A stretch of DNA of 64,000 nt from positions 78,980 to 142,979 of the forward strand of contig CAAFVV010000030.1 of NCBI GenBank assembly GCA_900766585.1. The letters run 5' to 3'. This stretch comes from Clostridia bacterium. Its GTDB lineage: Bacteria; Bacillota; Clostridia; Oscillospirales; Acutalibacteraceae. Every line of letters begins with the position of its first letter. Position 1 is the stretch's first letter. Positions 3,128 through 50,009 of the stretch are shown piece after piece. The position numbers and the translations under genes were made by a program. The notes under the pieces were generated by a model. It made no database searches. It saw only the letters and a list, made by a program, of their open reading frames with translations, and was not told the DNA's origin.

Positions 3128-3156
3128 TTGCGAAAACAGGGGAAATGTTGTATAAT
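3128..3156 (+). promoter_or_regulatory. sigma-A type promoter (TTGCGA-17-TATAAT) upstream of nifS
   Basis: Hexamers seen directly in sequence about 30 nt upstream of the AAGGAG RBS of nifS. Confidence 0.45.
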
Positions 3157-3185: not shown

Positions 3186-4331
3186 GTGAAGGGGTTTCCC
3201 TACCATTATTTAGACAACAGCGCCACCACCAATGTCTGCCGCGAAGCGGCGGACAAGGCGGCCTATATGATGACCGAATGCTTCGGCAACCCGTCCTCAC
3301 TCCATTCGCTCGGCTTCGCCGCCGAACGGGAGCTGTCCGCCGCCCGCCGCGCCGTCGCCGCCCTGATCGGCGCCGAGCCGGAAACCGTCACGTTTACGTC
3401 CGGCGGCACGGAGGCGAACAATCTGGCGCTGCTCGGCTGTGCCGAAGCGATGAGTCGGCGGGGGCGGCATATCGTCACGACGGCGGTGGAGCATTCCTCT
3501 GTGTCCGAGCCACTTACCGTCCTTGAAAAACAGGGGTTTACCGTTACGCGGCTCACCCCCGGTCAAAACGGACTTGTCAGTCCCGGGCAGGTCGCTGCGG
3601 TCTGCCGCCCCGATACAATACTGGTCAGCATCATGCTGGTCAACAATGAGACCGGGGCGCGCTTTCCGATCGAGGAGATCGTTCCCGTCGTGCGCCGGCT
3701 CTCCCCGTTTGCTAAATTCCATACCGATGCCGTTCAGGCAGCGGGAAAGCTCCCGATCCGTTTGGACAAGCTGGGAGTCGATCTGCTGTCACTGAGCGGT
3801 CACAAGCTCCATGCACCGAAGGGCAGCGGCGTGTTATACCGCCGTTCCGGCTGCCGCCTGATCCCGCGCCTTTACGGCGGCGGACAGGAGTACGGGCTGC
3901 GCTCCGGCACAGAGGCGGTTCCCGCCTTTGCCGCGCTCGGCGCCGCCGTCGGTGCGCTGCCCGACCCCGCTGAATTTGAAGCGGAGACAAAAGCGCTGTC
4001 CGACCGATTGATCGCCGGTCTCGGCCGTATTCCCGGTGTTTCACTGCACCGCCCGGAATCCGCCGTGCCGTATATTGTCAGTCTGTCTGTTCCCGGTCTG
4101 CGCAGCGAAACGCTGCTGCACTTTCTGGCGCAGCGTGATGTCTATGTGTCCAGCGGATCTGCCTGCTCGAAGGGCAGACGCAGTCCCGTGCTGACCGCGA
4201 TGGGAATGTCTGCCGACGAGATCGACTCAGCGCTGCGCGTCAGCCTGTCCCGCTATAACGATGAATCCGATATCGACGCCCTGCTTGAGGGACTTTCCGA
4301 GGCGACTGCCGCATTGGCGCGCCGCAAATAA
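3186..4331 (+). CDS. nifS: cysteine desulfurase (NifS/IscS family, class V aminotransferase)
   Basis: PLP-lysine motif SGHKLHAPKGSGVLY. C-terminal SGSACS active-site Cys loop. GTG start with AAGGAG RBS. Classic partner of thiI. Confidence 0.85.
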   Translation: MKGFPYHYLDNSATTNVCREAADKAAYMMTECFGNPSSLHSLGFAAERELSAARRAVAALIGAEPETVTFTSGGTEANNLALLGCAEAMSRRGRHIVTTAVEHSSVSEPLTVLEKQGFTVTRLTPGQNGLVSPGQVAAVCRPDTILVSIMLVNNETGARFPIEEIVPVVRRLSPFAKFHTDAVQAAGKLPIRLDKLGVDLLSLSGHKLHAPKGSGVLYRRSGCRLIPRLYGGGQEYGLRSGTEAVPAFAALGAAVGALPDPAEFEAETKALSDRLIAGLGRIPGVSLHRPESAVPYIVSLSVPGLRSETLLHFLAQRDVYVSSGSACSKGRRSPVLTAMGMSADEIDSALRVSLSRYNDESDIDALLEGLSEATAALARRK

Positions 4332-4353
4332 CCGACAAAGGAGGCCATCGAAC

Positions 4354-5937
4354 ATGAATGAACCCCGTGTAAATGACAAAAACGCCCGTCCCGCCGACGG
4401 CGATATGCGCGATCAGCTTGAGGTGCTTCGCCTGATGGAGCAGTATCGCAGTCAGGAAGAGCCGCAAAGTAAGCCGACGGTGCCGCTTGCTCCCCCCGAG
4501 GAGAAGCCGACTGCCGCCCCTGAAAAAAAGCCGCAGAAGAAAAAACGCTCGCTGCGGCAGATACTGACCGGCGCGCTGTATGCCGCCATTCCCGTCGCCG
4601 GGGATCCGCCGCGGGAGATCGTCCGCAAGATCGTGTTTCTGGTCGCTTTGCTGACACTGATCGGCTCCTGCGGCTACATTGTCAATGACATGGTCATTCA
4701 GCCGGGCATTTCCGCCAATACCTACGGCAGGCTCGACGATATCTATCACAACGGGGAGCCGCTTACGCCGGAGGAGGAAAACTACACCTATCCCGAGGGC
4801 ATCCGCGACGAATTCAAAAAGCTCTACTATGTCAATTCCGACATCAGCGGCTGGTTTACCTATGTCGCCACGACGTCAAATAAATGGCTGAACATCAGCT
4901 ATCCGGTCGTCCATACCGATAATAACGACACGTATCTTGACCACGATTTCTACGGCAAAAAGAGCAAAAACGGCGCGCTGTTTACCGACTACCGCTGTCT
5001 GACCGGTCCGGATGAATACAGCAAAAATACCATCATCTACGGGCACAATATGGGCAGCGGCCAGATGTTTTCGCGCCTGAATTACCTCATCAAAAACACC
5101 TACAATATGCGCTCCGCCGCCACGTTCCAATATAACACCATCTATGAAGAGCAGACATATAAGGTATTTGCCGTTATGGTCACCAACACGCGCGAACAGG
5201 AGGGGCCGATCTTCAATTATATGCGCACCGATTTCTCGTCGGATGAAGATTTTCTCCAGTTTGTCGCCGAGTGCCGCGCGCGCTCGATGTACAACTTTGC
5301 CGATGTGGATGTCAGAGCCGATGATGAGCTGGTCACGCTGTCGACCTGTGCGCCATACAGCAGGACACATGTGCATAACAGCCGCACCGTCGTGGTGGCG
5401 CGCAAGGTGCGCGAGGGCGAATCCGCCACCGTGAATACCGCCAAGATTACCGAGAATAAAAACTGCCTGTATCCGCTGAGCTACTATCAGGAGCAGAAGC
5501 TCGATCCGCACCCGTATTATACCGGCGAATATGTCATCACGCCGGAGGGCGGTCAGACAGTGACCACCGTGCCGACCGCGCCGACAACGCCGAATACACC
5601 GATCGGAAGCAGCTCTTCTGCGCAGACCGACCGGACGACTCCTGATACACCGTCGTCCTCCTCGGCGCTGACGCCCGGTACGCAGTCGACGACAGCTTCG
5701 TCGGGCGGACAGCCGTCACATACAACGAAGCTGTCGGGAACACAGCCCGCGACATCGGGCAATACCAAACCGAGCCACACGACCGCACCGCCGACGTCCC
5801 CCTCCGGCGATACAACGGCGCCGACCGCCGCGCCGACAACAAAGCCGGAGGAGACGAAACCCTCCGAGACGCAGCCGACAGAGCCGGAGACGCCGGAAAC
5901 GACCGCCGCCCCCGCTCTCGAAGCCTCCGGTGAATAA
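4354..5937 (+). CDS. class B sortase-like membrane protein with ~140-aa C-terminal Thr/Pro/Ser-rich low-complexity tail
   Basis: ATG at 4354 with AAAGGAGG RBS. Basic cytoplasmic N-terminus, then TM IVFLVALLTLIGSCGYIV. Catalytic triad elements IIYGHNMGSGQMF (His), LVTLSTCAPY (TLxTC Cys), RTVVVARKV (Arg). Tail TTVPTAPTTPNTPIGSSSSAQT.... Confidence 0.7.
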   Translation: MNEPRVNDKNARPADGDMRDQLEVLRLMEQYRSQEEPQSKPTVPLAPPEEKPTAAPEKKPQKKKRSLRQILTGALYAAIPVAGDPPREIVRKIVFLVALLTLIGSCGYIVNDMVIQPGISANTYGRLDDIYHNGEPLTPEEENYTYPEGIRDEFKKLYYVNSDISGWFTYVATTSNKWLNISYPVVHTDNNDTYLDHDFYGKKSKNGALFTDYRCLTGPDEYSKNTIIYGHNMGSGQMFSRLNYLIKNTYNMRSAATFQYNTIYEEQTYKVFAVMVTNTREQEGPIFNYMRTDFSSDEDFLQFVAECRARSMYNFADVDVRADDELVTLSTCAPYSRTHVHNSRTVVVARKVREGESATVNTAKITENKNCLYPLSYYQEQKLDPHPYYTGEYVITPEGGQTVTTVPTAPTTPNTPIGSSSSAQTDRTTPDTPSSSSALTPGTQSTTASSGGQPSHTTKLSGTQPATSGNTKPSHTTAPPTSPSGDTTAPTAAPTTKPEETKPSETQPTEPETPETTAAPALEASGE

Positions 5938-5976: not shown

Positions 5977-7161
5977 ATGTACATTCCCGAGGAGATCCTT
6001 TTGATCAAAAACGGTGAGCTTGCCCTTAAAGGTCTGAATCGTCATACGTTTGAGGATACGCTGATCCGCAATCTGCGGTTTCGGCTGAAAGACGCCGGGC
6101 ACTTTATGATCCGCAAGGCGCAGTCCACCATTACCATTGAACCGCAGGACGAGCATGCCGATCTTGATCTTGCGTGTGAGCGGGTCAGCAAGGTATTCGG
6201 TATCGCCGCCTTTTCACGCGCTTATCGCGTCGATAAGACGATGGATGCCATTTTGGACGGTGCGGTACGGTATATGAAGGAACCGCTGTCCGCCGCCGCC
6301 ACATTCAAGGTGGAGGCCAAGCGCAGCGATAAGAGCTTTCCGCTGCGCTCCCCCGAGATCTGCGCCGAAACGGGCGCACGCCTGCTGGAGGCGTACCCCC
6401 ATCTGCGCGTGGATGTCCACGATCCGGATGTTCTGGTCATGGTTGAAGTGCGCGACTACGGTGCGTATATCCACACGATGCAGCTTCCCGGGGCGGGCGG
6501 CATGCCGGTCGGCACGGGCGGACAGGCGGCTGTGCTGATCTCCGGCGGGATCGACTCCCCCGTTGCCGCGTATATGATGGCCAAGCGCGGCATCCGTCTC
6601 ACAGCCGTCCACTTTGCCTCCCCGCCGTATACCAGTGAACGTGCCGAGCAAAAAGTCAAGGATTTGCTTGCCCGCGTGGCACAGTACGCCGGCCGCATGA
6701 GCCTTTGCATTGTTCCCTTTACCCATATTCAGGAGGAGATCCGCGAACACTGCCCCGAGGAGCTGTTCACGGTCATCATGCGCCGCTTTATGATGCGTAT
6801 CGCCTCCCGTGTTGCCCAAAGAGAGAATTGCGGTGCGCTGATCACCGGCGAGAGCGTCGGACAGGTGGCCAGTCAGACCATTCCCGCCATCGCCTGCACC
6901 GACGCGGCGGCTTCGCTGCCGGTGTTCCGTCCCCTGATCGGCATGGATAAGGAGGAGATCGTCACGATCTCGCGCAAAATCCGCACCTTTGATCTGTCGA
7001 TCCTCCCGTATGAGGATTGCTGCACGGTATTTACCCCCCGCCATCCCCGTCTGCGCCCCACCGAAGAGGCGCTGATCGAAGCCGAAAAGGCGCTCGACGT
7101 TTCCGCGCTGACGGAGGAGGCGCTTACACAGCTTCGCTTTTGCCTGATCAAACCGGAATAA
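5977..7161 (+). CDS. thiI: tRNA uracil 4-sulfurtransferase ThiI (short form, no rhodanese domain)
   Basis: THUMP-like N-terminus. PP-loop SGGIDSPVAAYMMAKRG. Typical ~390-aa clostridial ThiI next to nifS. Confidence 0.9.
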   Translation: MYIPEEILLIKNGELALKGLNRHTFEDTLIRNLRFRLKDAGHFMIRKAQSTITIEPQDEHADLDLACERVSKVFGIAAFSRAYRVDKTMDAILDGAVRYMKEPLSAAATFKVEAKRSDKSFPLRSPEICAETGARLLEAYPHLRVDVHDPDVLVMVEVRDYGAYIHTMQLPGAGGMPVGTGGQAAVLISGGIDSPVAAYMMAKRGIRLTAVHFASPPYTSERAEQKVKDLLARVAQYAGRMSLCIVPFTHIQEEIREHCPEELFTVIMRRFMMRIASRVAQRENCGALITGESVGQVASQTIPAIACTDAAASLPVFRPLIGMDKEEIVTISRKIRTFDLSILPYEDCCTVFTPRHPRLRPTEEALIEAEKALDVSALTEEALTQLRFCLIKPE

Positions 7162-7197: not shown

Positions 7198-10100
7198 TTG
7201 CTGCGTATCCTGCATATTTCCGTCGGCGGCGTTTCGCCGGACACAGCTGCGGTATGGGAAAGGGTGTTTTTGCCCTATGGTGAATCCGTCTCCGCGTCTC
7301 TTTCCGCAACGGACGAATCCTCTTTGCGCAAGCTGCTGTGTACCGACGCCAAGGGCTGTGATCTGGTGCTGCTGACCGGCGACGCTGCCTGCTGCCGCAA
7401 AGCGGTGCTGTCGCTGACCGGACCGGACGCCGTCATCCCTCTCGCCCTGACCCGCCGCATTGCCGGCTGGATGTTCCGGCAGCCCGGAAGGCTTTGGGTC
7501 TGGCTTCCCGACGGCGCCGAAAAGCAGATAGCACTGTTATCGGAATGCGTTCTGCCGCTGCTGCCCGAAAAGCATATGATCGTGCATACCGTCGGGATCT
7601 ACGGCCTCGCTCCCGAAGTAATTCAGGAAAGGCTGGCACCTTTTCTGTCCAGGACCTCTCCGGCGTGCTGTCTGTATCGGATAGATGCCGAGTGGCGGCT
7701 TCGTCTGGTTGCCCCCTGCGGTGAGGAAAGCGGGATGGAGTGTACACTCGCCGCAATCCGCAAGCAGCTCGGGGCCTATCTCTACGGGACAGACTGCCCC
7801 GACCTCTTCGGACGCGTGCAGGAATTACTGGGACTCAGAGCGCTCACCGCCGCCGTCACCGGTCTCCCGCCTATGGCCGGCCGTAAAAGTGGCGGTATCA
7901 ATTTTATTTCTGAGGATATCCCCGTCGAGCAGCCGGCAGAGCCTGGCGCTGACGCTGGAACCGACGGGCAAAACGAACCGGATCCGACCCCGTATGCGGC
8001 ACTGCGGGCTAAAGAAACCGGAAATGCCGCACTCGGTCTCTCCCTGCGGCAGGATACTTCCGCCTCGCGGCCGACCGTGCGCCTGTCTCTGACAGACGGA
8101 AGACGCCTTTGGAACAAAACGCTGACCGGCGACGATGCCGATACACTGACAGCCGAAGCGGAAAGTGCGCTCTGGGATTTGGCGCGCCGTTATCTGGAGG
8201 CGTTTCCTCTGGTCATGGCGGGCGGCGAACCGGTCGTACTCCCCGAAAAAGCGACCGATATCCCCGTTTCTCCGCTGGAAAAAGAGCAGCCGATACTTCT
8301 CCGCCCCGTGAAACGCACCTCCGAGCGCGCTTTTCGCGTTATCCTCGTCTGTATGCTGGCGGTCGTTTTGTGTCTGTCCGCCGGATTGTTCACCTATTTC
8401 CGGTTTTTCAACCGTACGCCGATCAACGCATTCCGTGATCTGGAGGCACTGTATCGGACCAATGTTTCAGCCAATGATTCAGACGAATATCCCAAGGATA
8501 TGCTGCCGCAGTTTTATTCGCTGTACAAGGAAAATGCGGATATTGCGGGGTGGATCCGGCTGGACAACAAAACGCAGAGCTATCCCGTGATGAACGGGCT
8601 GGGATCGGTTGACTACGGTTCCAGCGATTTTGCCGGGCAGCCCTCCTCCTATGGCGTCCCCTTTTTCTTTCCCGCAACGCCGCGGGCGGATAAAAACGAC
8701 TGCCTAATTATCTATGGAAACCACATGACGGATAACACCATGTTTTCCTGTCTTTTAAACTATTTGGACAACTCCTATGCGCGTTCTCACGCCCAAATAG
8801 AAATGACCACGGTATACCGCACAGGCACATGGCAGGTATTCGCGGCACTGACAGTGGATGAAAACGAGAGCGACCTGAATTTTACCCGCACGGCATTTAC
8901 CGGCGAGGCAGACCGATTGCAGTTTGTCCGCGAGCTGACAAGCCGGTCAAAGCTGACTATCACCTCAGAAGAGGTGGAAAACGAACATGAGCTTTTGCTG
9001 CTGACCACCACGCTCTCCTCCGATCCCAAGGATACCAGGCGTGTCGTTGTTGCCTTTTACCGTATAGACGGCACCAGCTCTTCCTCCACGGTCAATGTCA
9101 CGAAAAGCGCCGAGTCACAGCCCGATAACACCGTATCGGATATCCCCTCGTCTGATGACGCTTCTTCGAATGTTTCGCCGGATGTCTCCTCCGAGGACAG
9201 CCGCCCGCCCAAGCCGGATGAGGATACGTCTGAGGACGGCGGAACGGACTTTATCGAGCCGTCTGACGATGAGGACAGCCAGCCCCAGACCACAACCTCA
9301 AAGACCGCTGTTACCACGACGTCGACCAAGGCTGTAAAGCCGACCGCCTTTCCCTCCACATCGGCGGCGGAAACAGAGTCCGGCACGGCATCCGCAACAT
9401 CTGCTTCAAATACCGACACTCCGACCAGTGCGACGCTGTCCACTACGTCCGTTTCCGGCAAGACAACGACCTCCACGACCGCTAAGCCGTCGGATACTTA
9501 TGTGCCGATTCGCGAGGGTACAATCGACGAGAGCGAATACTATCCCCTGTTCCGGCTGAAAAACAGCGCCACCGAAAAGATCTTTACGCCGACGACACGG
9601 GAGGAGCTGACCCTCGGTCTGTTTTACATAGTGAAAATGGAGATGGGCTCCGCTTCGCTGATGAAAAAATCCACTGAAGCGCAAAAGGCACAGGCGGTCG
9701 CTTCCTACACCTTTGTTTTGTATTACTGTCAGAACAGCGGCAAGCCGTATGAATTCAAGTTTCCGACGTATGACCCCAACAATGCCAACGACCGCAAGAT
9801 CTATTCCGCGGTAGCGGCTGTGGCGGGAACCAAGATGATCTATCCGGAGAAGGCGCTCAAATCCCAAGCCATCAACGCCATGTACTGCGCCTCCTCTGCC
9901 GGCGTCACCTCGAGCTGCCATATGGTCTTTACGGCGAAGCTCCCCTATCTGGTCAGCGTGAAGAGCCAGTACGATACCGATGCCTATCTGAAATCGGTAA
10001 ACGGCAGCAGCATTACCGCCGAGTTTACCGTCAAGTACAGCAACCTGTTGTCGGCGATCGGTCAGTCTTTGGATCTGGCACAGTCGGAGATCTACGCCGA

Positions 10101-10467
10101 AAAGGGTGCGGTTCCGCTGTTCGCCAAAACATGGGACGGCGGTGAGAACGGCTATGTCTATCAGACAAATCTGTATTACTACAAAAACGGTAAAAAGACC
10201 TATATCACCGGCAAACAGATCCGCAACAGTGTCAACAAGCACACCTCTGCTTCCATGCGCTCCCACGCATTTACCGTTACCGCCTATGACAGCAAGACGG
10301 ATATCATGACCATTCAGACGCGCGGACACGGACACGGGCTGGGGCTTTCGCAATACGGCGCGGTGGGTTATGCCAACGAGGCAGGATGGACATATGACCG
10401 GATTCTTGCCCACTATTATTCGATCACGGAAACCACGCCCTATCAGCTCGTTGCCCCGAAATTTTAA
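7198..10467 (+). CDS. multidomain membrane protein: degenerate CinA-like N-domain + TM + pseudo-sortase B domain (Cys lost) + Ser/Thr/Asp-rich linker + SpoIID/LytB domain
   Basis: TTG start with GGAGG RBS. TM VILVCMLAVVLCLSAGLFTYF. Sortase-like ADIAGWIRLDNKTQSYPVMNG..IIYGNHMTD..ELLLLTTTLSSDPKDTRRVVVAFYRI, i.e. TLSTC replaced by TTLSS. C-terminal SpoIID motifs EAQKAQAVASYTFVLYY and TRGHGHGLGLSQYGAVGYANEAGWTYDRILAHYY. Confidence 0.7.
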   Translation: MLRILHISVGGVSPDTAAVWERVFLPYGESVSASLSATDESSLRKLLCTDAKGCDLVLLTGDAACCRKAVLSLTGPDAVIPLALTRRIAGWMFRQPGRLWVWLPDGAEKQIALLSECVLPLLPEKHMIVHTVGIYGLAPEVIQERLAPFLSRTSPACCLYRIDAEWRLRLVAPCGEESGMECTLAAIRKQLGAYLYGTDCPDLFGRVQELLGLRALTAAVTGLPPMAGRKSGGINFISEDIPVEQPAEPGADAGTDGQNEPDPTPYAALRAKETGNAALGLSLRQDTSASRPTVRLSLTDGRRLWNKTLTGDDADTLTAEAESALWDLARRYLEAFPLVMAGGEPVVLPEKATDIPVSPLEKEQPILLRPVKRTSERAFRVILVCMLAVVLCLSAGLFTYFRFFNRTPINAFRDLEALYRTNVSANDSDEYPKDMLPQFYSLYKENADIAGWIRLDNKTQSYPVMNGLGSVDYGSSDFAGQPSSYGVPFFFPATPRADKNDCLIIYGNHMTDNTMFSCLLNYLDNSYARSHAQIEMTTVYRTGTWQVFAALTVDENESDLNFTRTAFTGEADRLQFVRELTSRSKLTITSEEVENEHELLLLTTTLSSDPKDTRRVVVAFYRIDGTSSSSTVNVTKSAESQPDNTVSDIPSSDDASSNVSPDVSSEDSRPPKPDEDTSEDGGTDFIEPSDDEDSQPQTTTSKTAVTTTSTKAVKPTAFPSTSAAETESGTASATSASNTDTPTSATLSTTSVSGKTTTSTTAKPSDTYVPIREGTIDESEYYPLFRLKNSATEKIFTPTTREELTLGLFYIVKMEMGSASLMKKSTEAQKAQAVASYTFVLYYCQNSGKPYEFKFPTYDPNNANDRKIYSAVAAVAGTKMIYPEKALKSQAINAMYCASSAGVTSSCHMVFTAKLPYLVSVKSQYDTDAYLKSVNGSSITAEFTVKYSNLLSAIGQSLDLAQSEIYAEKGAVPLFAKTWDGGENGYVYQTNLYYYKNGKKTYITGKQIRNSVNKHTSASMRSHAFTVTAYDSKTDIMTIQTRGHGHGLGLSQYGAVGYANEAGWTYDRILAHYYSITETTPYQLVAPKF

Positions 10468-10504
10468 TGCAGTGCATCTGTAAAGCTGTATATCTTTACG
10501 CAGG

Positions 10505-10569: not shown

Positions 10570-11133
10570 ATGACGGAATTCGCGGAATTTTCTCCGCATA
10601 TTGTCGCGTTGGATATCTCCCTGCCGTTTTTCGACGGCTACCACTGGTGCAGCGAGATCCGCAAGGTGTCCAAGGTGCCCATCCTATTTATCTCCTCCGC
10701 CGCTGATACTATGAATATGGTCATGGCAATGAATCTCGGCGCAGACGATTTTATCGCCAAGCCCTTTGATCAGAGCGTGCTGATGGCAAAAATACAGGCC
10801 ATGCTCCGCCGCACCTACGATTTTGCCTCTGCCGTACCGGTGATCGAGCACCGCGGCGCTCTGCTGAACACCGCGGAATACACACTGACCTACGGCGATG
10901 AAAAAATCCCCCTTTCCAAAAACGAATACCGTATTTTGTCGCTCCTGATGCAGAATAAAGGCAGCGTGATGAGCCGTGAACGCTTGATGCAGCAGCTTTG
11001 GGAGAGCGACAGCTTTGTGGACGAAAATACGCTGTCGGTCAATGTCAACCGGCTGCGCAAGCGGCTGGACAGCATCGGGCTGCACGATTTTATTACCACT
11101 AAATTCGGTGTCGGCTATCTTATTGAGGACTGA
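10570..11133 (+). CDS. OmpR/BceR-family response regulator, N-terminally truncated receiver domain (probable remnant or pseudogene)
   Basis: Begins just before the phosphoacceptor Asp (HIVALDISLP). Retains K-box region and intact winged-helix DNA-binding domain. About 50 N-terminal residues (acidic Mg pocket) are absent in every frame upstream; that space is occupied by the preceding gene's terminator. Confidence 0.6.
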   Translation: MTEFAEFSPHIVALDISLPFFDGYHWCSEIRKVSKVPILFISSAADTMNMVMAMNLGADDFIAKPFDQSVLMAKIQAMLRRTYDFASAVPVIEHRGALLNTAEYTLTYGDEKIPLSKNEYRILSLLMQNKGSVMSRERLMQQLWESDSFVDENTLSVNVNRLRKRLDSIGLHDFITTKFGVGYLIED

Positions 11134-11136
11134 TAT

Positions 11137-12123
11137 ATGAAACAATTGGCAACCTATATTAAGCAGAAATGGTGTGTTCTTGCGGTCTTTCTGCTGTTTT
11201 TCCTGATTTTTTGGCTCTCATTTACCCTTTATCACCTGCCTGTTGAGGCTGTGGTCTATCCTATGCTCCTCTGTCTCGTGTTGGGCTGCGGATTTTTAAT
11301 CGGCGGGTATCTCCGCGCGCGGAAACGGCACGCACTGCTCTGCCGTATCCGCACAATGGCGGATGCCGGGGAAGCGGAATTCCCCTCGGCGGATACTGCG
11401 GCAGAAGCGGATTACCGGCAGATCATCCGTCTGCTCTGCGAGGAGCAGCGCGTCTATCGCACCGAGCAGAGCAGGCGCTATGCCGACATGATCGACTACT
11501 TTACCGTTTGGGCACATCAGATCAAAACGCCGATCGCTTCCATGCGGCTGCATCTGCAAAATGAGGATTCCGCCCTGTCGCGCGCCCTGTCTGCCGATCT
11601 GTTCCGCGTGGAGCAATATGCGGAGATGGTGCTGACCTTCCTGCGGCTCGACAGCGCGAGCACCGACTATGTGTTCCGCGAATATGATCTGGATACTATT
11701 GTTCGGCAGGCAGTCAAAAAATTTGCCGGGGAATTTATTCGCCGCAAGCTGACACTTGTCTATGAACCGCTGCATGACACCGTGATCACCGATGAAAAAT
11801 GGCTCTCTTTTGTGATCGAACAGGTTCTGTCCAATGCGCTCAAATATACGAGAAGCGGAAGCATCACGATCACAGAGGAGCAGGGAAAGCGGCTGTGTAT
11901 CCGCGACACGGGGATCGGGATCGCGCCGGAGGATCTGCCGCGCATTTTCGAAAACGGGTTTACAGGCTATAACGGCCGTGCCGACCGGAGAGCGAGCGGC
12001 ATTGGTCTGTATCTGTGCAAGCGCATCTGCACGCAGCTTGGGCATACCATTACCGCCGAATCCGCCGTGGATGTCGGCACGACAATTACCATCGACCTGT
12101 TCAAATACCGCAGCGAGACGTGA
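11137..12123 (+). CDS. sensor histidine kinase, intramembrane-sensing BceS-like (2 TM, HisKA + HATPase_c)
   Basis: Two N-terminal TM helices with almost no extracellular loop. H-box HQIKTPIASMRLHL. N/G boxes SNALKYT, DTGIGI, GIGLYLCKRI. Confidence 0.85.
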   Translation: MKQLATYIKQKWCVLAVFLLFFLIFWLSFTLYHLPVEAVVYPMLLCLVLGCGFLIGGYLRARKRHALLCRIRTMADAGEAEFPSADTAAEADYRQIIRLLCEEQRVYRTEQSRRYADMIDYFTVWAHQIKTPIASMRLHLQNEDSALSRALSADLFRVEQYAEMVLTFLRLDSASTDYVFREYDLDTIVRQAVKKFAGEFIRRKLTLVYEPLHDTVITDEKWLSFVIEQVLSNALKYTRSGSITITEEQGKRLCIRDTGIGIAPEDLPRIFENGFTGYNGRADRRASGIGLYLCKRICTQLGHTITAESAVDVGTTITIDLFKYRSET

Positions 12124-12179
12124 GCTTCTTACAAAACTGTTAGATTTTCCGGGGGATTTGTAAGCCGATCCTATGGCGA

Positions 12180-12203
12180 TACAGATCCCCTTTTGGTATA
12201 CTA
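12180..12203 (+). promoter_or_regulatory. candidate extended -10 promoter (TGgTATACT) upstream of the bceA-like gene
   Basis: TGGTATACT about 30 nt upstream of the AAGGAGG RBS. Weak -35. Region where a BceR-type regulator would normally bind. Confidence 0.35.
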
Positions 12204-12234
12204 AGCGCAAGATCCACAAGGAGGTCACCTGAAA

Positions 12235-12999
12235 ATGAGTATGCTATCGGTAAACGGTGTACAGAAAATTTACACCACCCGTTTCGGCGGGAACCGCGTG
12301 GAGGCGCTGAAAAATGTGACATTTGACGTAGAGGCCGGAGAATACGTCGCCATCATGGGCGAGTCCGGCTCGGGCAAAACAACGCTTCTGAATATTTTAG
12401 CCGCGCTGGATAAGCCCACATCCGGCTCTGTTCTGTTAGACGGCAGCGATCTGTCCAAGATCAAGGAGGCACAGGCTGCCGCCTTCCGGCGGGATAATTT
12501 AGGCTTTGTCTTTCAGGATTTTAACCTTTTGGACACCTTTACGCTGGAGGACAATATCTACCTGCCGCTCGTGCTGGCGGGAAAGCCGTATGCGGAGATG
12601 CACCGGCGATTAGTCCCCATCGCCGATCAGCTCGAGATCAGCTCGCTGCTGAAAAAATACCCCTATGAGGTCTCGGGCGGTCAAAAACAGCGTGCGGCGG
12701 TCGCCCGGGCATTGATCACCGGTCCGAAACTGATCCTGGCAGACGAGCCGACCGGCGCGCTGGATTCCCGCTCTACCGATGAGCTTTTGCGCCTGTTTTC
12801 GGAGATCCACAAAACCGGTCAGACGATTCTGATGGTCACGCACTCCGTCAAAGCTGCAAGCCATGCGTCGCGTGTGCTGTTTATCAAGGACGGCGAGGTA
12901 TTTCACCAGATCTATCGCGGCGACAGCACCGATTCGCAGCTGTATCAGAAGATCACCGACACCCTGACCATGCTGACGACAGGCGGTGATACCGAATGA
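12235..12999 (+). CDS. ABC transporter ATP-binding protein, BceA-like (peptide antibiotic resistance)
   Basis: GESGSGKTTLLNIL Walker A. LSGGQKQRAAVARAL signature. ILADEPTGALD Walker B. Overlaps the downstream permease start (ATGA). Confidence 0.9.
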   Translation: MSMLSVNGVQKIYTTRFGGNRVEALKNVTFDVEAGEYVAIMGESGSGKTTLLNILAALDKPTSGSVLLDGSDLSKIKEAQAAAFRRDNLGFVFQDFNLLDTFTLEDNIYLPLVLAGKPYAEMHRRLVPIADQLEISSLLKKYPYEVSGGQKQRAAVARALITGPKLILADEPTGALDSRSTDELLRLFSEIHKTGQTILMVTHSVKAASHASRVLFIKDGEVFHQIYRGDSTDSQLYQKITDTLTMLTTGGDTE

Positions 13000-15029
13000 A
13001 GCTGAGTTTTTTCCCGAAGCTCGCGCTTGACGGCATCCGCAAAAACCGACGGCTGTTCCTCCCCTATATCCTCAGCGGCGCCGTGTTGGTCACCATGACC
13101 TATATTCTGTTTTTCCTCGCCTCTTCGGAGATGCTCGAGCATATGAAGGGCGGCGGCGTGCTCGGCTACATGCTGCCGATCGGCATTGTGGTCGTCAGCG
13201 TGTTTGCCGTGATCTTTATGTTTTACACCAACTCGTTCATTATCCGTCAGCGGTACCGCGAATTCGGTCTGTATAACGTGCTCGGCATGGATAAGCACAA
13301 TCTCGGACGCCTGATGCTGTGGGAAAACCTGATCGCCGCCTGCCTTGCCATCGGACCGGGGCTGCTCGCCGGCATTCTCCTCTCCAAATTTGCCGAGCTA
13401 GGTATGGTGAACCTGCTGCAGGAAACGGTCAACTATACGCTGTATATTGATTTCGGCTCGGTCGGCAGGACGGCGCTGCTGTTTCTCGGTATTTTTGCCC
13501 TTTTGCTGATCAATTCCGTGGTCAAGGTCAGAAAAAGCGATCCGCTTGAGCTGCTCCGCAGTGAAAATGTGGGCGAAAAGGCGCCGAAGGCGAATTGGAT
13601 CACGACCGGCCTCGGCATTATCCTGCTCGGCGCCGCCTACTATATCGCCCTGTCGATCAAGCACCCCTTAGAGGCACTTTTCTGGTTTATGATTGCGGTG
13701 ATCCTGGTCATCATCGCCACCTATCTGCTGTTTATATCCGGGTCTGTCGCACTTTGCCGTCTGCTGCAGAAAAACAAGGCGTATTACTATAAGCCCAACC
13801 ACTTTGTCTCTGTTTCGTCGATGACCTACCGCATGAAACGCAACGGCGCGGGACTTGCCTCCATCTGCGTGCTGATCACGATTGTTCTGGTCATGCTGTC
13901 CTCGACCATCAGCCTGTATTCCGGTGCCGAGGTAACGCTGAGGGAAAATTATCCGCAGGACATAGCGCTCGGCGTCACGCTTCCAGACATGGAGCATTTT
14001 AATGAAGGATCCTTTTCCGCCATGCGCCGCACCGTTTCCGATCTGGTCGACGACCAGATCGATGTCCACGAGTCGCACGCCATAGAGCTGGCGGGATTGC
14101 TGACCGGCGATCAGTTTTTGGCTGATCAGCAGGCGCATTCCACTCTGGATCTCTCCGTTTTGCAAAACCTGTGCTATCTGCATATCCTGTCACAGGATGA
14201 CTATACCCGTCTGACCGGGGAAACGCTCACGCTCGCCGGCGATGAGTGTCTGATCTCCTGCTACCGCACTTCATTTTCAGCCGACCGCATAGAGATAGAG
14301 GGATGTGCGGCGCTGAAAGTGAAGGGCGAAGCAGTGAAAATCCAGCTGCCGACTTATCTGATGCAGCAGATCGTTCCCTGCGTCACCTTAGTTGTGCGGG
14401 ACGCCGTCGCCCTGACAAAGCCGCTGCAAAACATGCAGAATAACGTCGGTGATTCGGTCTTAGAGCCGAAATGGTATTATAGCTTTGATGTATCCGGCGG
14501 AGCCGAGGCGGAAATGGCGGCGTATACGGCGATCAAGAAAAATATGGATAAGATCGTTATTCCCAACGAGAACGGCGGATATTCCTATCAATTAGGCTGC
14601 CGTGAAAGCGACCGACAGGGATTTTACGCGCTGTACGGTGCGCTGTTCTTCATCGGTATTCTTCTCAGCGTGGTTTTCATTTTTGCCGCCGTGCTGATCA
14701 TCTACTATAAACAAATTTCAGAGGGGTATGAGGATCAGAAGCGTTTTTCTGTCATGCAGAAGGTCGGCATGACCAAGGCGGAGATCCGCCGTTCCGTCAA
14801 TTCTCAGGTGCTGACCGTGTTTTTCCTCCCCCTTCTCCTTTCCGGCGTTCATCTCGCCTTTGCTTTCCCGATCATCTGGAAGTTGCTTCAGCTGTTCATG
14901 TTCCGCAATGTCCACTTTATGATCGGCGTCACCGCCGCTATCTTTGCGGTATTTGCGTTGATCTATGCGCTGGTGTATAAGGTGACGTCAAATGCCTACT
15001 GCGCCATTGTCAGCGGGAAAAAGGAATGA
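12996..15029 (+). CDS. ABC transporter permease, FtsX-family BceB-like (10 TM, large extracellular loop)
   Basis: 677 aa. N-terminal KLALDGIRKNRRLFLPYILS typical of BceB. Two FtsX-like 4-TM bundles flanking a ~200-aa loop. Confidence 0.85.
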   Translation: MKLSFFPKLALDGIRKNRRLFLPYILSGAVLVTMTYILFFLASSEMLEHMKGGGVLGYMLPIGIVVVSVFAVIFMFYTNSFIIRQRYREFGLYNVLGMDKHNLGRLMLWENLIAACLAIGPGLLAGILLSKFAELGMVNLLQETVNYTLYIDFGSVGRTALLFLGIFALLLINSVVKVRKSDPLELLRSENVGEKAPKANWITTGLGIILLGAAYYIALSIKHPLEALFWFMIAVILVIIATYLLFISGSVALCRLLQKNKAYYYKPNHFVSVSSMTYRMKRNGAGLASICVLITIVLVMLSSTISLYSGAEVTLRENYPQDIALGVTLPDMEHFNEGSFSAMRRTVSDLVDDQIDVHESHAIELAGLLTGDQFLADQQAHSTLDLSVLQNLCYLHILSQDDYTRLTGETLTLAGDECLISCYRTSFSADRIEIEGCAALKVKGEAVKIQLPTYLMQQIVPCVTLVVRDAVALTKPLQNMQNNVGDSVLEPKWYYSFDVSGGAEAEMAAYTAIKKNMDKIVIPNENGGYSYQLGCRESDRQGFYALYGALFFIGILLSVVFIFAAVLIIYYKQISEGYEDQKRFSVMQKVGMTKAEIRRSVNSQVLTVFFLPLLLSGVHLAFAFPIIWKLLQLFMFRNVHFMIGVTAAIFAVFALIYALVYKVTSNAYCAIVSGKKE

Positions 15030-48602: not shown

Positions 48603-50009
48603 ATGCCCCTGAGCGGTTTACCGTATATTCCGGAGACCATCACGGTCCATCTGGGACCGCCGAACAGCAGCGCCCGCAATGTAACCGTCCCGTTTATCGA
48701 CTATATCAAAAACGTTGCTTCGAGTGAGATCTATCCCACCTGGCCGGAAAATGCGCTGCGCGCCAATATATACGCCCAGATTACGTTTGCCTTAAACCGC
48801 ATTTACACCGAGTGGTACCGCAGCCGCGGTTACGATTTTGATATCACCAATTCCACTGCCTATGATCAGGCGTATGTGCCAAACCGCGATATCTACGACA
48901 ATATTTCCGCCCTTGCGGATGAGCTGTTCAACACCTATGTACGCAAGCAAGGCACGGTTGAGCCGTATTTTACCCAGTACTGCAACGGCACCACTGTCAC
49001 CTGTAATGGGCTGTCGCAATGGGGCACGGTTGCGCTGGCAGAGAGCGGCGCTACGCCCTATGAGATCCTCACCAACTATTACGGCGACGATATTGATCTG
49101 GTGCGGGACGCTCCGGTGCGCCCGCTGGATCAGTCCTATCCCGGCACCCCGTTTCGCATCGGCTCAAGCGGGCGCGATGTACTGCTGCTTCAGATCCGGC
49201 TGAACCGCATTTCCGCCGACTATCCCGCCATTCCGAAAATTTTTCCTCTCGACGGCGTATTCGACGCAGAGACCGACGCCGCTGTACGGGAATTTCAGCG
49301 CATTTTCAATTTGAGCGAGGACGGCGTTGTCGGTCCGGCGACATGGTATCAGATCAACGCCATTTATACGGCGGTCAAACGGCTTGCCGAGCTTAACTCC
49401 GAGGGACTGACCTTTGACGAGCTGGGGCAGCAGTTTCCCGGCCCGCTTCGCTACGGCGATACCGGCACCCCGGTGCGCATCGTGCAATACTATCTTGCGG
49501 TGATCGGGCAATTTTACGACACCGTCAACTCCCCTGCCATCAACGGTACCTTTGATGAGGCCACCCAGGACGCCGTGCGCGCATTTCAGGCAGCCAGCGG
49601 GCTGACCGTTGACGGCATCGTCGGCGACCAGACGTGGAACGCCATCCTCGACGCCTATTACGGCATACTTGACAGCATTGACAACCTCACGCTTCCGGTC
49701 AAGCTGTTTCCCGGCACACTTTTGGTGCAGGGCTCCCGCGGCGAGTATGTCTCTGTTCTGCAGGAATACCTCTCCTATATCGCCGACACCTTTTCCGAAA
49801 TCCCCAAAGTGCCGGTCACCGGTGTGTTCGGCACCCTGACCGACCGCGCCGTCCGCGCGTTTCAGGAGCTGTTCGGTCTGACACCGGACGGTAGGGTCGG
49901 TCTGCTGACGTGGAACAGCATTGCGGGCGTGTATGACGATCTGCAAAACGGCTACCGCAAGCAGGAGGGGCAATATCCGGGTTATGCGCTCGGCGCCTCG
50001 GAAGCGTAA
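48603..50009 (+). CDS. SpoIID/LytB-family domain protein with three peptidoglycan-binding (PG_binding_1) repeats (SleC-like architecture)
   Basis: N-domain YIKNVASSEIYPTWPENALRANIYAQITFALNRI and NGLSQWGTVALAESGATPYEILTNYYG match SpoIID signature regions. Three repeats of the LQ..L...Y....DG.FG..T..AV..FQ type. Confidence 0.6.
   Translation: MPLSGLPYIPETITVHLGPPNSSARNVTVPFIDYIKNVASSEIYPTWPENALRANIYAQITFALNRIYTEWYRSRGYDFDITNSTAYDQAYVPNRDIYDNISALADELFNTYVRKQGTVEPYFTQYCNGTTVTCNGLSQWGTVALAESGATPYEILTNYYGDDIDLVRDAPVRPLDQSYPGTPFRIGSSGRDVLLLQIRLNRISADYPAIPKIFPLDGVFDAETDAAVREFQRIFNLSEDGVVGPATWYQINAIYTAVKRLAELNSEGLTFDELGQQFPGPLRYGDTGTPVRIVQYYLAVIGQFYDTVNSPAINGTFDEATQDAVRAFQAASGLTVDGIVGDQTWNAILDAYYGILDSIDNLTLPVKLFPGTLLVQGSRGEYVSVLQEYLSYIADTFSEIPKVPVTGVFGTLTDRAVRAFQELFGLTPDGRVGLLTWNSIAGVYDDLQNGYRKQEGQYPGYALGASEA

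Follow-up and report, generated by a model that had tools for sequence, protein, structure and literature searches.

Why should the gene of a class B sortase lie between nifS and thiI, two housekeeping genes, and what is its product likely to do? The question is posed by a 64,000-nucleotide stretch of DNA from a Clostridia bacterium (GenBank assembly GCA_900766585.1, contig CAAFVV010000030.1, positions 78,980 to 142,979 of the forward strand), the whole of which we refer to as the window. Its srtB-like gene, here called copy A (4354..5937, + strand), encodes a class B sortase of 527 residues that is anchored in the membrane and carries an N-terminal extension and a tail rich in Thr, Pro and Ser. 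A family profile run on the six-frame translation of the window finds two sortase domains only, that of copy A and one in a 1089-residue protein downstream of thiI (copy B; 7198..10467, + strand). We consider it on balance probable that copy A is a class B sorting transpeptidase capable of catalysis, with substrates encoded elsewhere, and that it is the active member of an ancient duplication. What the analysis shows is the fold, the intact triad, the signals of topology, the conservation of the operon and the purifying selection; the enzymatic activity of copy A, the type of its substrate, the role of its tail and its co-transcription are points that we infer.

The catalytic domain spans residues ~140-352 (4771..5409, +) and is delimited by Pfam and NCBIfam models, by sequence matches in the PDB and by Foldseek. 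Pfam Sortase (PF04203, MEROPS C60) matches residues 179-352 with 50.5 bits (gathering cut-off 26.6). Among the NCBIfam models the srtB equivalog TIGR03064 scores highest, with 134.7 bits. Fifteen sequence matches were found in the PDB, all of them to the sortase B/SrtB family (three under generic depositor names), with a best E-value of 6.7e-28. An AlphaFold2 model, computed from a 40-sequence alignment, has a predicted local confidence (pLDDT) of at least 86, mostly above 90, over residues ~71-390, and of at least 80 from residue 61. When this model was compared with the PDB by Foldseek, ranks 1-19 were all class B sortases, with E-values down to 3e-20 and target template-modelling scores (TM-scores) of 0.73-0.90 (mostly 0.77-0.90), against ~0.5 for class A and C sortases. 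The scores were 0.86-0.90 for the SrtB enzymes of Bacillus anthracis, Staphylococcus aureus and Clostridium perfringens. The product of 4354-5937 is, as modelled, of the class B sortase fold, an eight-stranded beta-barrel with helices peculiar to the class. The original prediction, an earlier reading of this DNA from its letters alone, had assigned it to that class, and the lack of a sortase fold that it named as grounds for withdrawing the assignment is not what the model gives.

The active site is complete. The three motifs picked out by the original prediction (YGHNM, LSTC and RTVVVARKV) were correctly chosen, since they contain the catalytic residues His231 (nucleotides 5044-5046, in YGHNM), Cys332 (5347-5349, in VTLSTC) and Arg344 (5383-5385, in NSRTVVVARKV). 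These residues, together with the class-B S-T-C motif, are invariant across the alignment of 40 orthologs. In a broader set of 121 sequences (120 homologs and the downstream paralog), the aligned position is occupied by His in 119 sequences, by Cys in 116 and by Arg in 117. When copies were sorted by profile score, His, Cys and Arg were all present in 82/82 copy-A sequences, from 79 loci and the window; this set includes three of the loci L001-L005 that duplicate others and that were dropped from later analyses.

The predicted topology of copy A is type II, with a single transmembrane helix, the N-terminus inside, the C-terminus outside and the catalytic domain extracytoplasmic. The helix occupies residues 93-111 (4630..4686, +; hydropathy 2.17) and has a K/R-rich N-terminal flank, in keeping with the N-terminal anchor claimed at the outset. 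Selection on the domain can be gauged against the closest relative, locus L006 (CAKUMQ01), a metagenome-assembled genome (MAG) from the Hadza gut labelled 'uncultured Eubacteriales' that is 94-97% identical. The copy-A cores of the two differ by 48 synonymous and 3 non-synonymous changes, which points to strong purifying selection on the core.

The position of the gene is conserved too. A search of a protein collection returned 261 homologs at E <=1e-5, the few named ones being from uncultured Clostridia and carrying the labels Clostridiales, Clostridia, Bacillota/Firmicutes or Acutalibacteraceae. A pattern and tblastn scan of one genome per species indicates that a relative is encoded in ~580 species-level genomes of Oscillospirales-type uncultured Clostridia, and the 80 that match best are MAGs whose labels read Ruminococcaceae, Oscillospiraceae, Acutalibacteraceae, Eubacteriales, Clostridia, Candidatus Avimonas or Ethanoligenens. 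Neighbourhoods were compared by running the window's proteins by tblastn on 85 fetched loci, counted as 82 distinct loci. The gene order nifS - sortase - thiI was found in 71 of the 82; seven further loci are cut by contig ends but consistent with this order, and three have the order nifS - thiI - ... - sortase.

Four outgroup loci show what the surroundings look like without the insertion. In L084, an Ethanoligenens MAG, nifS, thiI, cinA (436 residues) and srtB (273 residues, triad intact, tail-less) are separate genes. L086 has nifS and thiI followed by one fusion of CinA, a transmembrane segment and an active sortase, and L087 has nifS and thiI followed by a 900-residue active sortase bearing other extensions. 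L081 (4599-13391) carries nifS, thiI, a free cinA, two tandem sortases and then a SpoIID protein. The first of its sortases has the full triad; the second has Lys for Arg and already has the copy-A juxtamembrane motif (LPGKKDGPLEIFRK). The SpoIID protein (762 residues) consists of a transmembrane segment, a Ser/Thr-rich linker and SpoIID, without a sortase domain or Pfam-detectable CinA, and we read L081 as a probable intermediate architecture. Because 71 of the 82 loci share the order and the outgroups have adjacent nifS and thiI, the term 'inserted' in the original prediction is apt. Judged by gene order, the insertion is ancient, and the arrangement is an ancient module conserved across the clade, not a local oddity.

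The outgroups also bear on what the enzyme does. The single-copy lineages (L084, L086 and L087) have at this position an active sortase only, and in some copy-A loci copy B is missing beside thiI, which argues that catalysis is the ancestral and self-sufficient function. Together with the invariant active site, the SrtB fold, the purifying selection on the core and the extracytoplasmic topology, these active-only lineages are our reasons for reading copy A as a working transpeptidase. On this reading, which follows the mechanism established for sortases, copy A would be held in the membrane by its one N-terminal helix, with the catalytic domain outside the cell, and Cys332, aided by His231 and Arg344, would cut the sorting motif of secreted proteins that are retained in the membrane before cleavage via a C-terminal hydrophobic and basic signal. 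The acyl-enzyme would then be resolved by the amine of a lipid II stem peptide, leaving the protein covalently joined to peptidoglycan. The substrates would be encoded elsewhere in the genome, probably with (S/P)PxTG- or xVxTG-type signals like those of C. difficile SrtB. The tail would be a disordered acidic segment with the length to reach across the wall, and it may carry glycans, as in the mucin-like or O-glycosylated stalks to which the original prediction likened it. As to history, an ancestral srtB would have lain downstream of nifS-thiI-cinA; one copy would have moved between nifS and thiI with catalysis retained, and the other would have lost His and Cys and usually become fused to CinA, with a SpoIID domain also present in most loci.

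Several observations weigh against this reading. The TIGR03064 score of 134.7 bits lies below the NCBI trusted cut-off of 153.75, so that copy A does not rank as an SrtB equivalog. Two scans of all six frames, combining regular expressions with hydropathy, found that no open reading frame (ORF) of the 64-kb window ends in a sorting signal, as the original prediction had reported. A relaxed scan of 1.34 Mb, made up of the window and the related loci, gave three matches, two of them sorting-signal-like, which is weak evidence in the same direction, the same neighbourhood being sampled. A conserved pseudo-sortase is almost always close by, and active sortases of sister lineages are found fused to CinA; neither would be expected of an ordinary housekeeping sortase, and both hint at a more specialised role. 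The conserved cytoplasmic motif and the post-sortase extension are of no known function. On the sub-threshold score and the lack of a cognate substrate nearby we file copy A as a divergent class B subfamily and not as an SrtB equivalog; the model NF040525, specific for LPKTxAVK class B sortases, missed its cut-off likewise (45.6 vs 200 bits).

Class B sortases act on substrates with sorting signals other than LPXTG, such as NPQTN, NPKTG or (S/P)PXTG, and these are often encoded close by. The two sorting-signal-like matches of the relaxed scan are candidate substrates. One, in L087 (15345-16181, +), is a protein of 278 residues ending in NPPQTGD, a hydrophobic stretch and RHKR, encoded ~5 kb from the sortase; the other, in L026 (9056-11632, -), is an 858-residue GLUG/Listeria-Bacteroides-repeat protein ending in QVDTGN, a hydrophobic stretch and KRKH. 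C. difficile SrtB is said to recognise (S/P)PXTG and NVQTG, which the candidate signals PPQTG (L087) and QVDTG (L026) resemble. The tail of copy A itself was considered as a substrate and rejected, because the spacing of the conserved segment HPYYT(D/G) does not match that of P-x-T-G and the residue after Thr is usually Asp.

Another way to view the locus is through the second sortase domain. Copy B consists of a degenerate CinA-like cytoplasmic region (residues 1-380, 7198-8337, +, with a CinA_KH trace), a transmembrane segment (residues 381-399, nucleotides 8338-8394, +), a pseudo-sortase (residues ~410-620, 8425-9057, +), a Ser/Thr-rich linker and a SpoIID/LytB domain (residues 811-1078, 9628-10431, +). 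The original prediction had proposed that the two sortase domains are paralogs, one active and one dead, on either side of thiI. BLASTP aligns them with 31% identity over 250 residues (E = 1e-21), and copy B has Asn508 and Thr605 in place of the catalytic His and Cys while keeping Arg614, so that both parts of the proposal hold for an active site that is intact in one copy and dead in the other. In a rough neighbour-joining tree, without support values, copy A (79 sequences) and copy B (57) are each monophyletic, and the single-copy active forms make a third group.

Copy B is more variable in its make-up than copy A. The usual form, of about 1150-1260 residues, has a full CinA, a transmembrane segment, the pseudo-sortase, an S/T linker and SpoIID/LytB; in about a dozen loci it has just the PncC half of CinA and is SpoIID-less. 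The CinA part of the window's copy B has as its sole Pfam trace CinA_KH, at 17.3 bits, and a search with the Ethanoligenens CinA misses it in the window and in L006; the L001 ortholog keeps full MoCF_biosynth, CinA_KH and CinA domains (127, 100 and 174 bits). With CinA degenerate and the sortase dead, the window's copy B joins a SpoIID domain to two enzyme domains that are dead or decayed.

Such a protein invites the explanation that copies A and B form a dedicated enzyme/pseudo-enzyme module in peptidoglycan remodelling, for instance in engulfment, sporulation or cell separation, with copy A working only in partnership with copy B. The dead domain would then be a binding, scaffold or regulatory subunit that holds lipid II, the sorting signal or copy A, while the SpoIID domain opens the wall locally, and the target of the sortase would be its partner or the wall and not a general set of surface proteins. 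The two copies are adjacent in most loci, and among crown-group copies 3' of thiI both His and Cys have been lost in 60/60. The His position holds N, K, Q, S or R and the Cys position P, D, N, S, T, G, A, E or Q, yet the Arg is mostly kept and the dead domains still score 110-190 bits on the copy-A profile. A domain that is conserved but dead in this way indicates selection for a non-catalytic role, and the monophyly of each copy is what one old duplication, with the work later shared out between the copies, would leave. Further, the pseudo-sortase is fused to SpoIID, sister lineages have CinA fused to active sortases, and a sortase-less SpoIID membrane protein adjoins the sortases in outgroup L081.

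The same comparison, however, yields evidence that counts the other way. Eight or more loci have copy A without copy B beside thiI (in eight the copy-B sortase domain is missing after thiI, and four of these keep just a CinA remnant), and the single-copy lineages are wholly without a pseudo-sortase. The SpoIID part of copy B scores 72.8 bits, far below the 234.75 for a true SpoIID equivalog. The copy-B linker was also considered as a substrate of copy A and rejected, since it offers no conserved motif at which cleavage might occur (over residues ~652-774 every alignment column stays below 85% conservation). We regard this explanation as possible but rather unlikely. More doubtful still is its stronger form, in which A and B make a physical complex that couples protein anchoring, or acyl transfer to lipid II, to SpoIID-type remodelling of glycan strands, and in which the tethered CinA domain and the IPxxGDxxxEIVRK motif of copy A would connect the complex to the cytoplasm.

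Structural matches raise a further explanation, that copy A is a pilus-type class B sortase that polymerises pilins, like Spy0129 of Streptococcus pyogenes or the type II pilus enzymes of Streptococcus pneumoniae. Enzymes of these kinds are indeed among the matches (3psq, 4y4q), but the match is poorer, at target TM-scores of 0.73-0.81 and 20-26% identity, than to the anchoring SrtBs. Pilus sortases are normally encoded within pilin operons, and neither the window nor any of the 80+ related loci has pilin or Cna-B-type genes adjoining the sortase; its neighbours in the window are nifS, thiI, the CinA/SpoIID chimera, a two-component system and an ABC (ATP-binding cassette) transporter, not a pilin cluster. 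We therefore hold a pilus role to be improbable.

We return to copy A as a sorting transpeptidase and to its parts outside the catalytic domain. The cytoplasmic N-terminal region, residues 1-92 (4354..4629, +), holds a helix at 16-34, a lysine-rich patch (EKKPQKKKRSLRQ) and a juxtamembrane motif. The original prediction called it a basic extension; the single Lys-rich patch is there, but with 18 K/R to 14 D/E the region as a whole is only mildly basic, and the description was overstated. The juxtamembrane motif, IPxxGDxxxEIVRK, lies at residues 79-92 (nucleotides 4588-4629), and P80, D84, R91 and K92 within it vary little or not at all among the 40 orthologs. In the AlphaFold2 model a helix at residues 67-78 is followed by a continuous helix from 86 to 133 that runs through the membrane.

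On the other side of the catalytic domain, beyond its last strand, lies a post-sortase extension of 45 residues (353-397; 5410..5544, +), which is marked out by ortholog conservation and by a pLDDT of ~96-97 up to residue 390. Across the 40 orthologs N368, P374, Y378 and Y389 are invariant, and W377 and H386 occur in at least 90%. The extension has no counterpart in the solved SrtB chains, which stop at about query residue 352.

The tail then occupies residues 398-527 (130 residues; 5545..5934, +) and is a disordered acidic Thr/Pro/Ser segment, as judged by its composition and a pLDDT below 50 for residues 407-527. T, P and S make up 57% of it against 20% of the remainder of the protein (binomial p ~8e-21), and it has 12 acidic, 5 basic and only 6 large hydrophobic residues. 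In most orthologs the composition is kept (40-59% T/P/S, with an acidic end) and the sequence is not; the tail is absent from a short-form subclade (337-360 residues), and in another subclade a Big_3 domain precedes it. The C-termini of copy-A orthologs (for example P0001-P0064) are often small or acidic after Pro, as in ...PAAE, ...PPAE, ...EPAA, ...GGE and ...TAAG, an ending that may be a weak signature or mere composition. DNA tandem repeats were rejected as the origin of the tail, just two trivial 9-nucleotide arrays being found, neither of them significant.

Between the tails of the window and of L006 there are 25 synonymous and 18 non-synonymous differences and one in-frame indel of three codons. 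The excess of synonymous changes and the in-frame indel argue that the tail is translated and under weaker constraint. The original prediction had named a frameshift, with the tail as a separate ORF, as grounds for doubting that the tail belongs to the protein; we reject this, and take the long in-frame tail to be genuine, because one uninterrupted frame runs through it, the architecture is common to orthologs and the L006 indel keeps the frame. The broader suspicion of an annotation artefact or a decaying gene, in which the tail would be separate or untranslated, or the sortase a functionless hitch-hiking remnant, could appeal to a tail that is low in complexity, GC-rich, overlapped by long shadow ORFs on the opposite strand and faster-evolving than the core, but it is made very improbable by the same architecture in dozens of orthologs down to 40% identity, by the single unbroken frame, by the synonymous excess and in-frame indel even in the tail, and by a triad that is invariant in 82/82 sequences.

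The layout of the genes fits expression of the sortase with its housekeeping neighbours. The first gene of the cluster, nifS, encodes a nifS/iscS-type cysteine desulfurase (3186..4331, +; Pfam Aminotran_5, 245.9 bits; TIGR03402, 347.6 bits), and thiI a tRNA 4-thiouridine sulfurtransferase (5977..7161, +; TIGR00342, 365.7 bits). Between them, direct reading of the sequence gives the sortase a ribosome-binding site, AAAGGAGG (4338..4345, +), with the ATG at 4354 lying 8 nucleotides 3' of it and 23 past the nifS stop (4331). The stop-to-stop frame opens at 4195, and its first ATG (4261) overlaps the 3' end of nifS; public gene callers give the identical 527-residue product. The sortase stop codon is at 5935-5937, and thiI starts 39 nucleotides on, at 5977, preceded by its own ribosome-binding site. 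Upstream of nifS there is a sigma-70-like promoter candidate, TTGCGA-17-TATAAT (3128..3156, +), a consensus match only (10/12), which is likely the start of a nifS-srt-thiI-copy B transcription unit. No convincing terminator was seen among the four genes nifS, sortase, thiI and copy B. Given the sortase's own ribosome-binding site, the gaps of 22-39 nucleotides to nifS and thiI, the want of a convincing internal terminator and the promoter-like site, the layout fits one operon, in which the sortase would be constitutively co-transcribed with nifS and thiI.

The base composition of the cluster is uneven, with a GC content of 0.50-0.53 in the stretches that code for the extracellular sortase, pseudo-sortase and SpoIID (4750-5250, 8250-10500) against 0.60-0.65 in nifS and thiI (nifS 0.64). 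A recent horizontal insertion of the sortase, which the low GC of its core might suggest, was rejected, because the arrangement is kept in 71 loci at 35-50% protein identity. The cluster being old and conserved, we attribute the dip to the amino-acid composition of the extracellular domains and not to recent transfer.

Around the cluster, the window is a core chromosomal region, with dnaK/dnaJ, a class A penicillin-binding protein, a PASTA kinase, priA, dnaX, alr and glgP. Divergent from nifS lies an ORF of 494 residues (1508-2992, -) with an N-terminal CxxC...CxxC, one transmembrane segment and an extensive C-terminal part; neither Pfam nor NCBIfam gives a match to it, and its position upstream of nifS is not conserved in related loci. 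The genes 3' of copy B (10570-15029, +) encode a response regulator, a histidine kinase, an ABC ATPase and a 677-residue FtsX-type permease. A number of related loci, among them L006, L012, L025 and L028, likewise have the response regulator 3' of copy B. A second SpoIID-related gene (48603-50009, +) encodes 468 residues, with an N-terminal SpoIID segment and three PG_binding_1 repeats.

Ruminococci, the Acutalibacteraceae and many uncultured Clostridia of the gut belong to the Oscillospirales, which count among the most abundant bacteria of the human and animal gut. Their surface display, as in cellulosome and amylosome scaffoldins with sortase signals, relies on uncharacterised sortases, and copy A, with relatives in ~580 species-level genomes, is a candidate for the conserved sortase of the clade. 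Among the ruminococcal scaffoldins, Sca2, Sca5 and ScaE bear sortase signals (PMC4611034, PMC5814915). If copies A and B cooperate, then the pair would be the first example of a pseudo-sortase or of such a regulator, an Oscillospirales-specific machine for wall remodelling, and a handle on how the anchoring of surface proteins is coordinated with that remodelling. If they do not, copy A would still be an obvious target for studying or blocking surface display.

How, then, does this locus compare with known systems? With the solved SrtB enzymes (B. anthracis 1rz2/2oqw, S. aureus 1ng5/4lfd, C. perfringens 5b23, C. difficile 4ux7/5gyj and Listeria monocytogenes 5jcv) copy A shares the fold (target TM-score 0.77-0.90, 29-32% identity), the triad, the (T/M)LSTC motif, the N-terminal anchor and the class-B helices. 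It differs in adding the 45-residue conserved extension and the 130-residue T/P/S tail, and in having ~92 cytoplasmic residues with an invariant juxtamembrane motif, where known SrtB enzymes have just a few cytoplasmic residues; and, unlike SrtB systems with IsdC, it is not encoded beside such a substrate. Comparable in its mode of action to that proposed for copy A is C. difficile SrtB (CD2718), which we take to be the single housekeeping sortase of that species: it too is of class B, with a general anchoring role and substrates scattered in the genome, as we propose for copy A. C. difficile SrtB, however, is without the long tail, the pseudo-sortase partner and the linkage to CinA or SpoIID, and to our knowledge it has no nifS-thiI operon context.

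The literature that we searched contained nothing relevant on pseudo-sortases or inactive sortase domains, and no description of this Oscillospiraceae/Ruminococcaceae sortase family, of its linkage to thiI or of its pairing with CinA and SpoIID. The pairing of an active with a dead sortase in a shared operon, which occurs in at least 70 species of gut Clostridia, appears to be undescribed. Set against the sortases described in the literature and otherwise known to us, what is new here is the cytoplasmic motif and post-sortase extension, the T/P/S tail, the linkage to nifS-thiI-cinA and the active/dead pair found across the clade. For the pair, there is a parallel with the LytM-type factors EnvC/NlpD and with SpoIIQ, degenerate-enzyme partners in wall remodelling in which dead paralogs are retained under selection beside active enzymes. 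This is an analogy only, fold and chemistry being different, and we know of no sortase-like domain for which a regulatory role has been shown.

Comparable with copy A in architecture are the CinA::sortase fusions of its own subfamily in sister Clostridia lineages (for example P0106/L086, with MoCF_biosynth, CinA_KH, CinA and Sortase domains), which occupy the cluster site after nifS-thiI, have an active triad, and share with copy A the post-sortase segment and an S/T/P-rich tail of about 100-120 residues. The window departs from them in that its catalytic copy is free of CinA and lies upstream of thiI, whereas its CinA-fused copy is dead and bears SpoIID.

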